A DNA stretch of 64,000 bases from Acidimicrobiales bacterium. GTDB lineage: Bacteria > Actinomycetota > Acidimicrobiia > Acidimicrobiales > SZUA-35. Every line of letters starts with the position of its first letter. The first letter of the stretch is position 1. The translations under genes were made by a program, and so were the position numbers. Shown here one piece after another: positions 2,633-38,219 of the stretch. The stretch is taken from the NCBI GenBank assembly GCA_047638695.1, contig JBLINY010000012.1, forward strand, positions 1,559-65,558, given 5' to 3'. Below the pieces are notes generated by a model that saw nothing but the letters and a program-made list of their open reading frames with translations, was not told the DNA's origin and made no database searches.

Positions 2633-3469
2633 TCAGAGGCGGGCGAGGAAGTCGGTGGTGAGTCGATGGCCTCGGTCGATGAGGTCGGCGGTGCCGTTGA
2701 AGTTGAACGAGCCATAACCATCGGGGGTCGCTCGAGGGAGCCGGACCACCAACCGGTCGGGGGCAAGGTCCTCGGTGTCGGTTGCTGCCTGGCTGCGCAG
2801 CATCAACGATGCCGTGTTCAGGAGGCGGCCAACCGGTCGGTTGGACGGACGGGCGATCTGGTTCGGAGTGGCATCCAGGACGACGACCGTCGCTGCTCCG
2901 GTTCGAAGGGCGGGTCGAATCGGCACGTTGGCGGCGACGCCGCCGTCGATGAACTCGCGCCCATCGATGGTGACGGATGGAAAGATGCCGGGGATAGCGG
3001 TGCTGGCCATGAGGGCTCGGTCGGCTCGCCCCCGGTTCAATAGCACCACCTCGCCGGTGGCGGCATCGGTGACAACGATGGAAAGCGGGAGTCTCAGATC
3101 TTCGATCTCGGTGACAGGTAGATGATTGGCCACCAGCCGCTGAAGCGAATCGGGTTCGCTGAGATGCGATCCGCGCGAGCGCAGAAAAGTGACAACGGCT
3201 CGACGGCGACTGCCCCCGAAAACGGTCGCTTGATCGATGGCCCGCCACACCTCATCGAGCCGGTCTGCCGCATCATCGGGGTGAGCGGAAACGACCGCTC
3301 CGTTCAGAGCACCGACTGAGGTGCCGACAACGAGGTCGGGCCGGATGCCGGCCTCAGTCAGCGCTCGGAGCATGCCGACCTGTGACGCCCCCCACGAACC
3401 GCCACCGGAAAGGGCGAAGGCCAGTGGCCGCGGCCAGGTGTCCGGCCGCCCGTTGGTGTGGGCCGGCAT
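2633..3469 (-). CDS. Patatin-like phospholipase
   Basis: GGGSWG, GTSVG and DGG motifs; start reassigned to ATG at 3469 (TGATG overlap with the MFS stop). Confidence 0.9.
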   Translation of the reverse strand: MPAHTNGRPDTWPRPLAFALSGGGSWGASQVGMLRALTEAGIRPDLVVGTSVGALNGAVVSAHPDDAADRLDEVWRAIDQATVFGGSRRRAVVTFLRSRGSHLSEPDSLQRLVANHLPVTEIEDLRLPLSIVVTDAATGEVVLLNRGRADRALMASTAIPGIFPSVTIDGREFIDGGVAANVPIRPALRTGAATVVVLDATPNQIARPSNRPVGRLLNTASLMLRSQAATDTEDLAPDRLVVRLPRATPDGYGSFNFNGTADLIDRGHRLTTDFLARL

Positions 3470-4752
3470 CAGGTCTTGGCGAGGACGGGGGCCGGCGTGT
3501 TGGCTAAGCGATCTTGTTTCGACGTCCCGGCCAGCGGGAGCAACAGAGCAAACGATACGAAGGCCAAAGCCATGGCGATGACCAAGGTTGCGGTGTAGTC
3601 GACCCGGTCGATCAGAAATCCCATCGTCGGCGGGCCGACAAGTCCGCCGACTCCGGCCGACGTGTAGAGCGCACCCAAAATTCCCCCGAGGCCGGCCGGG
3701 CCGAAAAGCTCGGCCGCTACCGCCGGTGCCAGCGCGATGAATCCGCCATACGACACTCCCATCGCGACCGCGAATACCAATAGGGGCGGGTAGGAGTCGT
3801 CGGCTGCGATCCAAATCAGAAAGCTGATCGACAAGGCCAAGATCGACCCCTGGTAGAGCCGAACCACCGGGATCCGACCAGCCAATGTGCCGAGTCCGAG
3901 CCGACCAACAACCGACGCCAGTCCGATGACGCCGAGCAGTAGTCCGGCCGAGCCACTGCTGCCGTGGACTTTCAGATAGTCGCCCATGAAGACGAAGGGC
4001 ATGAACAAAGGAAAGGACAGGATCGACATCGAGGCATACAAAATCCAGAACGGCTTCGAGGAGCGAATGACGGTCAGCAGCTGAGGTGGAGCGGCCGTCG
4101 TCATGCTGGGTGGCCGCTGGGCGAGGAAGGCGGCCAGCGTCAGCAGCGCACCCGATGCCACGGCCATGATCACGTACGTCTGGCGCCATCCGTACCGAAC
4201 GATCAGTCGTTCGACGATCGGAGCGTTTACGAGGGTGCCCACGCCGATGCCGGCGACAGCGATGCCGATGGCGGTGGTGCGTCCTTTTTCGAACCAGCCA
4301 CCAACCGCAGCGACAACCGGCACGTACCCGCAGGCGACGCCGATGCCGACTCCGAGTCCGTACGTGACGTAGCCGAGCTGAAGGCTGTTCACCTTGCTGG
4401 TGGCGAAGAGACCCAGCGACATACAGACGGCACCGAACAGCATGACGGGTCGGGGCCCGATGCGATCGGCGATCTTGCCGCTGAACACTCCGAGGCTGAA
4501 ATAGAGGAAGGTGGTGACGGCAAAGAAGAAGGCTGTTGCGCCTCGTTCGCTTCCGAATTCGTCGGCCATCGGGCCGAAGAAGCCGCCGAAGCTGTAGGCG
4601 ACACCGAAGACCGTATAGAGGCTGAGGAAGGCGGCGAACACCATCATCCAGCCTCGAGGGCCATCGGTTGCCAGCGTCTTGCCAGCCGGTGCGGCCACCC
4701 CGACGTCAGAGGGCCGAGCGGCGGCCCTCTTGATCGTCGTGATGTTTCTCAT
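3469..4752 (-). CDS. MFS transporter (MCT/OFA-like)
   Basis: About 12 hydrophobic segments, GKIADRIGPR motif A; start taken at ATG 4752. Confidence 0.9.
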   Translation of the reverse strand: MRNITTIKRAAARPSDVGVAAPAGKTLATDGPRGWMMVFAAFLSLYTVFGVAYSFGGFFGPMADEFGSERGATAFFFAVTTFLYFSLGVFSGKIADRIGPRPVMLFGAVCMSLGLFATSKVNSLQLGYVTYGLGVGIGVACGYVPVVAAVGGWFEKGRTTAIGIAVAGIGVGTLVNAPIVERLIVRYGWRQTYVIMAVASGALLTLAAFLAQRPPSMTTAAPPQLLTVIRSSKPFWILYASMSILSFPLFMPFVFMGDYLKVHGSSGSAGLLLGVIGLASVVGRLGLGTLAGRIPVVRLYQGSILALSISFLIWIAADDSYPPLLVFAVAMGVSYGGFIALAPAVAAELFGPAGLGGILGALYTSAGVGGLVGPPTMGFLIDRVDYTATLVIAMALAFVSFALLLPLAGTSKQDRLANTPAPVLAKT

Positions 4753-14033: not shown

Positions 14034-14048
14034 CCCGAAGCAGTCAAA

Positions 14049-14089
14049 TTGTCCTTCTGAAGCACCGTGACGGTGCTTCAGAAGGACAA
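14049..14089. repeat. 41-bp REP-like palindrome, copy 1, between convergent genes
   Basis: TTGTCCTTCTGAAGCACCG-TGA-CGGTGCTTCAGAAGGACAA, perfect 19-bp arms. Confidence 0.9.
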
Positions 14090-14104
14090 GTTCGGTTGGT
14101 GGAG

Positions 14105-33390: not shown

Positions 33391-33494
33391 CTTGGCTGCC
33401 TGAACCCCCGCTCCCTCAACTCTGGCTGTCTGAACCCCCGTAGTTGGGGTTTCAGACAGCCAGAGTTCGTTTTGCGGCGGCGGGAACAGCCAAG
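33391..33494. repeat. 104-bp nested palindromic element (left flank)
   Basis: Ends CTTGGCTG/CAGCCAAG; direct units at 33392 and 33422, inverted units ending 33462 and 33492; perfect 17-bp arms 33418-33434 and 33451-33467. Confidence 0.9.
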
Positions 33495-33565
33495 CGGGGG
33501 CCGCAGGGGCGGTGCGCGGCCTGGTGTTGGCGGCCGCTGTCACACCTGGTTGCAAGACTGGCGCG

Positions 33566-34597
33566 GTGCGGGAAACACCGGATCAGATTGTGACAAGAGT
33601 GGCTGGACCTACAGCGGGTGCGTGTCGGCGGACCGATCTGGTCGAGGCCGGAATGAGTGGCAGCGCGATTGAACGAAGACTGGCGAGCGGTTACCTCGTC
33701 GCGATTACGCGGGGGCTCTATGTGGCGCCCGTCCTCGCCAACCCTGATACGCCGCTCAACATGGCTGTGCTTGGGGTGCCCCATGCTGTCGTGTCGCGGT
33801 TCTCGGCCGCAGCGCTGCACGGTATGTCGCTGACGTACCCCGATCAGGTGCATGTAACCGCGCCCAAAGGTGCCGGTCGGTTCCTCGAAGGTGTCGTCGT
33901 GCATGAGACCCGCCTGCTGCGGGATGAGGACGTCACCGAGGTGCGAGGTTTGGCGGTGACTTCTCCCGAGCGGACCCTGGTCGACCTTGCGGCCCACCTC
34001 CGCTTGCCCCGTCTGCGGCACCTTGTCGACTCCCACTATGCAGGACGTACTGCGGGACCCTTTTTGGCTTGCGTGCAGGGGCTGGCCCGTCCTGGCGTTC
34101 CCGGCTCTCGCATGCTGCGACAGCTCGCCTCACAGCTGGGGGAAGGGGATCCGCTCCCGGCTTCGGAGCTCGAACACCGGATCTGGCTTGGTTTGAACGT
34201 CAACGGGATCTCCGGCTTTCGACAGCAGCTGGCACCACCTTGGTACGACGGACGCCGCGGCATTGTCGACTTTGGCGCCCCCGACATCCGCATGATTATC
34301 GAGGGCGATGGACGGAGGTTCCATGACAGCCAGCAGGCAATGGCCGACGATCATCGCCGTGATCGTCTAGCAGCTCGTCACGGTTGGCTTGTCCTACGAG
34401 TGACGTGGCACGAGATCGTGCATCGGCCGGGGGCGACCTTCAGCGACCTGGCCGAAATCGTCTCGGCCCGCCGCACCGCCTCGAGCAGAGCGTCGGGCGC
34501 CGCAGCGACCAGCAGAGGTTCGGGTGCCGCCGTCATGACCGAATTGCCCTCCCGCTTGGCTGCCCGAACCACCGCCTCCGACGGTTTGGCTGCCTGA
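33566..34597 (+). CDS. AbiEi N-terminal wHTH + DUF559/Vsr-like nuclease domain protein
   Basis: RGLY, SAAALHG, VTSPERTLVDLA, SELE, VDF....RMIIEGDGRRFH...D.RRD....GWLVLRVTW; start GTG 33566 (alternative 33512); stop lies inside the right element. Confidence 0.85.
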   Translation: MRETPDQIVTRVAGPTAGACRRTDLVEAGMSGSAIERRLASGYLVAITRGLYVAPVLANPDTPLNMAVLGVPHAVVSRFSAAALHGMSLTYPDQVHVTAPKGAGRFLEGVVVHETRLLRDEDVTEVRGLAVTSPERTLVDLAAHLRLPRLRHLVDSHYAGRTAGPFLACVQGLARPGVPGSRMLRQLASQLGEGDPLPASELEHRIWLGLNVNGISGFRQQLAPPWYDGRRGIVDFGAPDIRMIIEGDGRRFHDSQQAMADDHRRDRLAARHGWLVLRVTWHEIVHRPGATFSDLAEIVSARRTASSRASGAAATSRGSGAAVMTELPSRLAARTTASDGLAA

Positions 34598-34658
34598 ACC
34601 ACCGCAAGCGGTGGTTCAGGCAGCCAGTCTGCGGTTTGCGGGGGTTGGAGCAGCCAAG
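34555..34658. repeat. 104-bp nested palindromic element (right flank)
   Basis: Ends CTTGGCTG/CAGCCAAG; direct units at 34556 and 34586, inverted units ending 34626 and 34656; perfect 19-bp arms TGGCTGCCTGAACCACCGC-AA-GCGGTGGTTCAGGCAGCCA. Confidence 0.92.
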
Positions 34659-34706
34659 AGGTGGGTTCAAGAGGTGGGTTCAAGAGGTGGGTTCAAGAGG
34701 TGGGTT
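34655..34706. repeat. 13-bp perfect tandem repeat x4 (CAAGAGGTGGGTT) covering the P450 3' end and stop
   Basis: Units at 34655, 34668, 34681, 34694. Confidence 0.95.
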
Positions 34707-36009
34707 GTGCGGCGTCGGCTGGGTCCCACTCGACGATGAATTGCTCGGGGCCTCGGAAGGTGATGTTGGGAGACGACCAAATCTCTTGCTCGGTCATCCG
34801 CAGCGACGGCATCCGCTCGACCAGCGCCTCGAGCACCAGGACCGCCTCGAATTTCGCCAGGTTGGCGCCGAGGCAATAGTGCATGCCCTTACCGAAGGAG
34901 ATGTGCTGCGCCGCGTTTGATCGGTGGATATCGAACTCGTTGGGCTTCTCGAAAATGTCGGGCTGGCGGTTCGCTGAGGCGAAGTTCATGAAGATCTGGG
35001 TGCCGGCGGGAATGTCGATGTTGCGCAACGTGGTGGCGCGGGTGGTGAGCCGACGCCAGCTGATCTGGCTCGACTCGTAGCGCAGGACTTCCTCGACCGC
35101 GTTCGGAATGAGTGAGGGATCAGCAACAAGCTGGTCCCACTGATCGCTCCGGGGGAGTAGGCAGAGCAGGGTGTTGCAGATGAGGCTGGTGACAGCCTCG
35201 TGACCGGCGAAGGAGAGGCCATAGATAATGGACTCGACCTCTCGGTACGTCAGCTCGTTCTCGTCGGCGTCGTGTGCGGCCAAAAGCTCGGACGTGAAAT
35301 CGTCGCCGCGGTTGTCTCGCTTCGACGCCGTGAAGTCGCGACAGTAACGCCAGTACGCCACCATCTTCTCGGCGATGGCCGCTTGCTCCGTTGGTGTTGG
35401 CTTGCCCCAGGAGAAGGCCTTGCGCTCGCCGCACCAGTTCTTGAGGTCTTCGTCGTCGGCTTCGGGAAATCCGATGAACCGAAAAACCGTTTCGCCCGGA
35501 AGCGGAAAGGCGAAGGCTTCGATGAACTCGAGCGGCCCACCGGACTCGCCACCGGCGAGGAACATGTCATCGATCAACTCGTGGCTGCGCCGGCGGACAT
35601 AGGGCTCGAGCGTCTTGAGGCGCCTTCTGGAGAATCCCAGGCGCGTGTGCTTGCGAATGCGGCCGTGGTCGGGAGCTTGCCTGTTCGACATCACCTTCTG
35701 CGGATCGAAATCGGGGACGCCGATGACCGCCTGAGCCTCGGGCGCAACCGGGAAGACGGGATCTTGCACGTTCTCCGACGAGTACGTGTCTGAGTCGTTG
35801 AAGACTTCGAGGATGTCGTCCATTTCGGTGATGACGACGTAGCCCAGCTCCTGGGCGTAGAAGATGGGGCTGTCTTCTCGCAGCTTGGTTGCGATCGGGT
35901 ACGGGTCGGCCAGGTAGTCGTCGTTCAACGGACTCCACGTCTGATGAACCGGACAACCGGCAGGTGCCGGTGGCGCGTCGCCTCGAAGCTGGTGGTACTC
36001 GTCGGCCAT
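34693..36009 (-). CDS. Cytochrome P450
   Basis: AGHEA I-helix, EEVLR (ExxR), FGKGMHYCLG heme-binding motif. Confidence 0.96.
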   Translation of the reverse strand: MADEYHQLRGDAPPAPAGCPVHQTWSPLNDDYLADPYPIATKLREDSPIFYAQELGYVVITEMDDILEVFNDSDTYSSENVQDPVFPVAPEAQAVIGVPDFDPQKVMSNRQAPDHGRIRKHTRLGFSRRRLKTLEPYVRRRSHELIDDMFLAGGESGGPLEFIEAFAFPLPGETVFRFIGFPEADDEDLKNWCGERKAFSWGKPTPTEQAAIAEKMVAYWRYCRDFTASKRDNRGDDFTSELLAAHDADENELTYREVESIIYGLSFAGHEAVTSLICNTLLCLLPRSDQWDQLVADPSLIPNAVEEVLRYESSQISWRRLTTRATTLRNIDIPAGTQIFMNFASANRQPDIFEKPNEFDIHRSNAAQHISFGKGMHYCLGANLAKFEAVLVLEALVERMPSLRMTEQEIWSSPNITFRGPEQFIVEWDPADAAQPTS

Positions 36010-38128: not shown

Positions 38129-38163
38129 GAACTGTTTCCTAGACCTGAACGAACATCCGAAAA

Positions 38164-38204
38164 TTGTCCTTCTGAAGCACCGTCAGGGTGCTTCAGAAGG
38201 ACAA
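38164..38204. repeat. 41-bp REP-like palindrome, copy 2, between convergent genes
   Basis: TTGTCCTTCTGAAGCACC-GTCAG-GGTGCTTCAGAAGGACAA; 39/41 identical to 14049-14089. Confidence 0.9.
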
Positions 38205-38219
38205 GAAGCTCGGGTGGGG

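Follow-up and report, generated by a model that had tools for sequence, protein, structure and literature searches.

An AbiEi-DUF559 nuclease gene of Acidimicrobiales and its flanking palindromes: a candidate cognate pair organised like REP/RAYT

Why does a solitary gene for an AbiEi-like nuclease lie between two copies of the same long palindrome? This question is raised by positions 33391 to 34658 of the 64,000-nt stretch of Acidimicrobiales DNA analysed here (the window, from contig JBLINY010000012.1), where a gene encoding an AbiEi-fold DNA-binding module fused to a DUF559 nuclease domain is bracketed by twin 104-nt nested palindromes. So far, the standard example of a nuclease that descends vertically together with palindromic repeats of its own is that of the repetitive extragenic palindromes (REP) and the REP-associated tyrosine transposases (RAYT), and an earlier note on this DNA had proposed a RAYT-like organisation around an unrelated nuclease fold. 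By reading the elements, surveying homologous loci and searching whole genomes for further copies, we found that this description of the organisation fits. Whether the gene and the palindromes are truly a cognate pair, that is, a sequence-specific nuclease with a palindromic repeat family, organised like REP/RAYT from unrelated parts, is in our judgement an evenly balanced matter.

A nuclease gene between two nested palindromes

The source assembly (5.15 Mb in 258 contigs, 62% G+C, 93% complete) holds the following features at the locus.

33391-33494, no strand: left 104-nt nested palindrome, read directly and returned by the repeat finder; covariance model score 87 bits
33566-34597, plus strand: AbiEi-fold/DUF559 nuclease gene, GTG start, 343 aa (the longest open reading frame starts at 33512 and has 361 aa)
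33569-34156, plus strand: AbiEi-like two-domain DNA-binding module (winged helix and AbiEi C-terminal domain), from structure matches and PADLOC
34163-34453, plus strand: DUF559/Vsr-like PD-(D/E)XK nuclease domain, from PF04480, fold matches and conserved residues
34555-34658, no strand: right 104-nt nested palindrome; covariance model score 97.9 bits, the best in the genome

Both 104-nt elements, whose extents the earlier note had given correctly according to direct reading and the repeat finder, start with CTTGGCTG and end with CAGCCAAG. As direct repeats they are 73% identical over 117 nt, and each is also an inverted repeat in itself. The architecture that had been described for them, four units in the order direct-direct-inverted-inverted with a 30-nt period and spacers that differ, is recovered in the alignment of the element's genomic copies, in which 8 out of 8 align without a gap: a unit at 1-20, a spacer at 21-30, a second unit at 31-50 and a central loop of 4 nt at 51-54 are followed by their mirror image, the units being about 20 nt long and the spacers varying from copy to copy. 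The left element begins 8 nt past the stop of the beta-lactamase-family gene upstream. On the other side, the stop codon of the nuclease open reading frame (34595-34597) falls within the right element, as had been claimed, and the convergent P450 gene ends 35 nt beyond it. A 15-nt core of the element has 6 matches in the window for 0.14 expected, a count that none of 100 shuffles reached. A known RNA family was rejected, since Rfam returned only sub-threshold microRNA-like hairpin matches (at most 36 bits, for gathering scores of at least 45).

The true start of the gene is probably GTG 33566, judging from homologues that begin at the matching residue. Its last 40 or so codons are of low complexity, not conserved, and run into the right element, homologues ending about 40 residues earlier. 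Pfam finds DUF559 (PF04480) at 35.9 bits for a cut-off of 20.6 (E 7e-9), together with AbiEi_1 and a sub-threshold AbiEi_4, and the AbiEi models of PADLOC match at 2.4e-23. In the AlphaFold model (predicted local distance difference test score 87, below 50 for residues 342-361), the first 200 or so residues superpose on AbiEi of S. agalactiae (6y8q, E 4.5e-7) and on Rv2827c of M. tuberculosis (1zel, E 1.6e-5), while the last 100 or so superpose on the DUF559 protein 3hrl (1.2e-13), the catalytic domain of the homing endonuclease I-Bth0305I (3r3p, 4.1e-5) and Vsr (1cw0). D253, E264, D266, H271 and D280 are invariant in 20 diverse homologues and, by analogy with the family, are the likely catalytic residues.

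The gene is single copy in the genome, where the sole other DUF559 domain is the C-terminus of a helicase. The protein's relatives come almost all from metagenome-assembled genomes of Acidimicrobiales, and the family counts 13,526 clusters at 50% identity (E up to 1e-3). Of the 121 Actinomycetota genomes sampled, 45 have AbiEi-DUF559 proteins (40 of 116 if five unpublished genomes are left out), and plasmids gave no tblastn match at 1e-8. Elsewhere in the source genome, a low-G+C perfect palindrome lies directly upstream of an open frame of 413 aa with a weak AbiEi_4 match (G000:C3:6140-6295); this may be an ordinary AbiE-type operator and antitoxin.

Matched flanks and the limits of the unit

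We fetched 80 homologous loci from public genomes, of which 68, from 44 Acidimicrobiales assemblies, had enough flank on both sides. For each locus, 460 nt around the gene start were aligned against 420 nt around the gene end, and the threshold was set at 25.3, the 99th percentile over 272 mismatched pairs, each made of the upstream flank of one locus and the downstream flank of a different one. First, the upstream and downstream flanks of the same locus matched above this threshold in 49 of the 68 loci. Second, none of 239 control pairs with equal spacing, shifted by 1.8-2.4 kb along the same loci, passed, their highest score being 20. Third, 8 of 12 loci in a first set of relatives, which partly overlaps the 68, scored at least 33. 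Homologues are thus enriched for flanking palindromes, a point on which the earlier note had suggested a check. The shared repeats fold as single hairpins of about 44-61 nt, as tandem hairpins or as nested ones of about 97-120 nt, many starting with (C)CGTTCTG and finishing with CAGAACG(G).

Because the window's element is rare (8 copies in 5.15 Mb) and two of these copies bracket the only AbiEi-DUF559 gene, the flanking cannot be put down to chance. By our own arithmetic, if 8 copies are spread over some 5,000 intergenic regions, the probability that a particular gene has a copy in each adjoining gap is of the order of 1e-6. An abundant repeat that flanks the gene by accident, a concern raised together with the original proposal, was rejected on this copy number, the homologue survey being decisive.

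AbiEi-DUF559 genes with their hairpins are immediate neighbours of the 3' end of pup in two genera (L008, G004:C329; L018, G014:C60). The two are in opposite orientations relative to pup, whose translated product ends in ...IQKGGQ and ...IQKGGE, respectively.

The hairpins differ from paralogue to paralogue. By comparing flanks between loci, we found that similarity above threshold is absent (0%) among the 2,257 pairs with less than 50% protein identity, and concerns 9% of the pairs at 50-60%, 48% at 60-80% and both of the two pairs above 80%. In a Mantel test, none of 300 permutations gave a value as high as the observed one. Simple synteny contributes part of the signal at high identity. The expectation that the palindromes track the protein is borne out by paralogue-specific families and by this test.

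Comparison of related loci also gave the limits of what is conserved. In two non-syntenic pairs, nucleotide homology ends at the outer hairpin edges: for L077 and L079 (78% identity) it spans 2887-4104, with the hairpins at 2887-2983 and 4004-4100, and for L079 and L092 it spans 2837-4129, with the hairpins at 2839-2938 and 4031-4130. Several other orthologue pairs keep their synteny along all 7 kb, and paralogues within one genome are at most 67% identical. Taken together, the synteny, the divergence within genomes and the boundaries at hairpin edges suggest that the gene is vertically inherited in single copy and occasionally relocates as a hairpin-gene-hairpin unit. On this sequence evidence the gene looks unlike a multiplying insertion sequence. 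A miniature inverted-repeat transposable element or an insertion sequence was rejected, as reading the 8 copies and the unit ends revealed no target-site duplication and Pfam no transposase domain.

These boundaries bear on a first rival explanation, namely a selfish gene that homes into hairpins. Here, pre-existing terminator-like palindromes of the host would be the targets; they would be cut, and the gene cassette would be copied in with the palindromes serving as homology arms. The nuclease domain does resemble the catalytic domain of I-Bth0305I (3r3p), hairpin-gene-hairpin units occur where synteny is absent, their homology ending at the outer edges of the hairpins, AbiEi-DUF559 genes lie beside pup in two genera in opposite orientations, and the source genome has a hairpin family lacking a cognate gene (see below). 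Yet no genome holds near-identical copies of the gene, several orthologues are syntenic, which indicates vertical descent, the hairpins occupy 8 to about 40 sites for one gene copy per family, and a gene-free allele of a site was not recovered. We regard homing as unlikely.

According to a second rival, the protein is an orphan antitoxin or an anti-phage defence nuclease, and the flanking palindromes are genomic repeats that happen to be there. In its favour are the AbiEi fold, the PADLOC match, the DUF559-like domains that occur in defence proteins and a weak match to ProA. However, Pfam identifies the two neighbours of the gene as a beta-lactamase-family hydrolase and a P450, so that no AbiEii (DUF1814) toxin gene is adjacent, in keeping with the gene having been called an orphan from the outset, and no other defence gene was identified among these two neighbours. 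Moreover, the flank statistics (49 of 68 loci, similarity that depends on protein identity, and the unit boundaries) rule out incidental repeats. This explanation therefore strikes us as very improbable.

Dispersed hairpins and a damage-type promoter

Both a profile search and a covariance model found exactly 8 copies of the 104-nt element in the genome, 2 at the locus and 6 solo (on contigs C223, C22, C32, C37, C81 and C4). Each solo copy follows the stop of a gene at a distance of some tens of bases (about 270 nt at C4). Two of the six occupy gaps between convergent genes, and divergent promoter regions contain none. More generally, most solo copies at the sampled loci are at the 3' ends of genes, in intergenic regions of the convergent or tandem kind. 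On the finished chromosome G041, the hairpin of locus L056 occupies 19 sites, 2 flanking the gene and 17 elsewhere, and that of L034 occupies 22, with up to 96% identity; a nested 113-nt family has about 40 sites on the finished chromosome G161. By searching relatives with the covariance model of the window's element, we found 29 sites in G004, of the same genus, 8 in G002, 5 in G013, 4 in G015, one each in G017, G005, G020, G022 and G035, and none in 31 others. Seven relatives have a best protein match with an E value of 1e-60 or better, and copies are present in 6 of them; of the 33 others, 3 have copies. At a contig end of G004, an element overlaps the stop of a partial orthologue (65% identical over 122 residues), as in the window.

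The source genome also contains a second, unrelated hairpin family, with arms TTGTCCTTCTGAAGCACC..., a length of about 44-58 nt and 15 sites, two of which fall in the window:

14041-14098, no strand: second-family hairpin (G000:C12:15599-15656)
38156-38212, no strand: second-family hairpin (G000:C12:39714-39770)

A six-frame profile search for decayed AbiEi-DUF559 genes between other hairpin pairs found none.

Among the solo hairpins of G041 (G041:C1, L100-L105), the outer GTTCTGTC and the inner CGCGTCGATATCGACGCG are constant within the family and the mid-stem varies with matching changes in the two arms, for example CTCCCACG/CGTGGGAG in one copy versus CTTGGACG/CGTCCAAG in another. The constant parts could be contact points, and the symmetry of the stem appears to be maintained.

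Next to the right element, one further repeat overlaps the last codons of the P450 gene:

34655-34706, no strand: four exact tandem copies of a 13-nt G-rich unit, beginning inside the end of the right element

A C-rich tract to the left and a G-rich tract to the right of the hairpins recur at L009, L010, L011, L015 and L017 and at the solo copies on C37 and C81. In an aquatic metagenome run (X4), a 247-nt contig of depth 3.3 aligns to 34383-34727. In it, 34552 is followed by 16 other letters and then by 34655, so that 102 nt of the right element are missing, and the low-complexity tail of the gene has small deletions; the contig may come from a strain lacking the right element or be an assembly artefact at the palindrome, and is not used as evidence. 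In another run, a contig covers the hydrolase gene and the left element and runs into the nuclease gene as far as 34560, with no difference at all. No RNA run that includes the locus was found.

The start of the gene added a point that goes beyond the earlier note, namely a promoter of the PafBC type:

33538-33559, plus strand: PafBC-type promoter, with -26 element TGTCAC (33538-33543), 10-nt spacer and -10 element AAGACT (33554-33559)

Since the -10 element lies 6 nt before GTG 33566, a leaderless transcript is predicted. We found TGTCA(C/T) within 200 nt around the start in 39 of the 68 homologous loci and in 6 of 186 control windows, and in most of the 39 aligned motif sequences a -10 nAnnnT follows at about 10 nt, shortly upstream of ATG or GTG. 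The consensus given for PafBC is tGTCgg(N10)tA(N3)T, with the -26 element in place of a -35 (PMC8635444). The recA gene of the source genome (G000:C7, 56128-56913, minus strand) is preceded by TGTCACACC and, after a spacer, TATGGT, so that the bipartite promoter without a -35 that characterises the PafBC regulon is common to both genes. The genome has two adjacent WYL-domain genes, which may encode PafBC. From this motif, the AbiEi-DUF559 gene is a putative member of the PafBC regulon, with predicted induction by DNA damage or single-stranded DNA.

Upstream of the PafBC-type motif of recA (G000:C7, about 57000-57300), a palindrome resembles an actinobacterial LexA box. This suggests that SOS and PafBC may jointly control recA, as they do in mycobacteria.

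Between the end of the upstream hairpin and the -26 element there are 18.5 nt in the median (43 nt at the window's locus), and this proximity makes some autoregulation possible. It leads to a third rival explanation, a regulator or repair nuclease that does not move. The upstream palindrome would be an AbiEi-type operator and the downstream one a terminator or a second operator; the solo copies would be further binding sites or U-less terminators, and the damage-induced nuclease would have co-evolved with its sites without propagating them. AbiEi and Rv2827c are described as autoregulating through 23-bp inverted repeats (PMC7319586), the upstream repeat is close to the -26 element, the solo copies lie at gene 3' ends, as terminators do, and the promoter is of the PafBC type. 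What this explanation leaves unaccounted for is that the same repeat stands on both sides in 49 of 68 loci while neighbouring genes are without it, that dispersed families reach 19 to about 40 near-identical copies (up to 96%), and that nested and tandem forms arose at all; in addition, operators downstream of convergent genes make scant regulatory sense. We consider it distinctly unlikely.

Known relatives, a possible mechanism and its significance

How does the proposed pair compare with known systems? With REP/RAYT it has in common that each family has one single-copy gene with its own extragenic palindromes on either side, and further solo copies dispersed mainly between convergent or co-directional genes at 3' ends, paired or nested forms that give longer hairpins, several gene/repeat families per genome and mostly vertical descent. 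The abstract of PMC3733652 describes such a distribution of REP and their flanking of RAYT genes, gives the REP tag as GTAG or CGTC, and reports one REP super-family without a dedicated transposase. However, an AbiEi winged-helix module and a Vsr-like PD-(D/E)XK domain stand here in place of the HUH Y1 enzyme, the arms are 20-25 nt long, the copies number 8 to about 40 instead of hundreds, and the promoter is of the PafBC damage type; recognition would probably concern double-stranded arms rather than single-stranded hairpins. A reading of the 8 copies found no GTAG or CGTC tag, all of them starting with C(T/C)(T/C)GGC and having symmetric ends. The HUH/Y1 transposase PF01797, which has the RAYT/TnpA fold, was not found in G000, G002, G004 and G041 and had one match in G161. 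Classical REP/RAYT was rejected on this ground, no HUH enzyme being found with PF01797 in four of the five hairpin-bearing genomes. Since the protein is no HUH enzyme and the repeats have no GTAG tag, the organisation is REP/RAYT-like without membership of that family, and the solo copies, the matched flanks and this Pfam result uphold the proposal of a RAYT-like arrangement with an unrelated nuclease fold.

The two halves of the protein have relatives of their own. The same two-domain AbiEi fold is found in the AbiE type IV toxin-antitoxin system. AbiEi binds two 23-bp inverted repeats that are 3 bp apart, and Rv2827c binds four 23-bp repeats within 131 bp, with one binding event per repeat (PMC7319586). 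The arms described here, about 20-25 nt long and separated by 3-6 nt, resemble these repeats of about 20-23 bp in twos or fours. In contrast to AbiE, there is no adjacent AbiEii, a nuclease domain is fused at the C-terminus, and the repeats flank the gene on both sides, are dispersed in the genome and end upstream of the promoter instead of overlapping it. As for the nuclease, PMC3424549 assigns Vsr, DUF559 and the homing endonuclease of a group I intron to a single PD-(D/E)XK clade. Fold and conserved acidic and histidine residues are shared with Vsr, DUF559 and I-Bth0305I (EDxHD). Unlike I-Bth0305I and other homing endonucleases, however, the gene is intergenic, between complete palindromes, and not in an intron or intein; unlike Vsr, it is not linked to a cytosine methyltransferase at the locus, and its targeting module is AbiEi-like.

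Integron attC sites are imperfect palindromes that flank gene cassettes. They were rejected on reading, because the palindromes described here flank single genes and not cassette arrays (an integrase was not searched for); the GTTCTG...CAGAAC ends of many loci also do not appear to fit attC core sites. In the literature covered, which is incomplete, we met no account of DUF559 or AbiEi-nuclease genes that have cognate palindromes at their flanks; supplementary tables of PafBC regulons might list them.

The cognate-pair reading leads to a possible mechanism. Each palindrome arm of about 20 nt would be one AbiEi-type binding site on double-stranded DNA; with one monomer per arm, a simple hairpin would take two monomers and the 104-nt nested element four. 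The bound monomers would place their nuclease domains so as to nick or cut at or beside the palindrome, once the gene has been switched on, through its PafBC-type promoter, by DNA damage or single-stranded DNA. Repair of the cut palindrome from another copy would then copy or homogenise the elements, and cut and repair could also carry the hairpin-gene-hairpin unit to a new site. That the protein spreads hairpins in this way seems to us to hang in the balance; that it homes into them is doubtful, and that it only acts at them is more doubtful still.

Several observations weigh against the cognate pair and its spread. First, 19 of the 68 loci have no matched flanks. Of 20 loci sampled beyond the class, in 13 other genomes of Actinomycetota, only 6 exceed 15.5, the maximum of 380 mismatched pairs; the flanking habit is therefore widespread and not universal. 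Second, the empty site of the window's locus was not recovered, since each orthologue is present in four genomes of the genus and the gene order is disrupted in all of these: the P450 orthologues (78-83% identity) in G001, G002, G003 and G005 and the hydrolase orthologues (61-83% identity) in G002-G005 all have other neighbours and no 104-nt element, a different short palindrome following the hydrolase in G004. Third, the copies that flank L056 are not nearest relatives, being 84% identical to each other and 86-87% identical to solo copies. REP families typically comprise hundreds of copies, and the 8 to about 40 counted here are far below this.

Moreover, the co-occurrence of element and protein across relatives is confounded by kinship, and no cognate AbiEi-DUF559 gene for the second hairpin family was found in the 93%-complete assembly. 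Hairpin pairs occasionally flank ordinary genes as well, so that bracketing alone is not proof: a second-family pair (G000:C4:68703 and 69781) brackets a LivH-like permease gene, and others bracket a DUF3179 gene in G004 and two unrelated genes in G041. Finally, the claim that changes in the arms are compensatory stood only in part. The change that had been cited is real (column 39/66, CG in 6 copies and UA in 1), but over the 8 copies covariation did not rise above column shuffles and so does not support selection on structure, with 84.7% versus 83.9% of cells paired (156 of 500 shuffles were as high) and 11 pairs altered on both sides versus 9.1 in shuffles.

The more far-reaching form of the proposal, which we hold tentatively and rate somewhat below an even prospect, is that AbiEi-DUF559 proteins are the enzymes of a second, independently evolved symbiosis between a palindrome and a nuclease in Actinomycetota, in which the AbiEi part would read private arms, the Vsr-like nuclease would cut upon sensing of damage by PafBC, and repair would copy, nest and disperse the hairpins. 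If this is true, actinobacteria have a damage-triggered, self-renewing set of hairpins at gene 3' ends, and the arrangement of a gene with its own palindromes has evolved more than once. Such a system could explain the U-less hairpin families found at gene 3' ends in these genomes, and would tie palindromic elements to the PafBC response to DNA damage. DUF559, a very common domain that still lacks an assigned function, and the "orphan AbiEi" genes annotated by thousands in Actinomycetota would gain a testable role. Since the presumed recognition arms of about 20 bp adjoin the gene of each protein, these loci would provide ready-made natural pairs of protein and DNA specificity.

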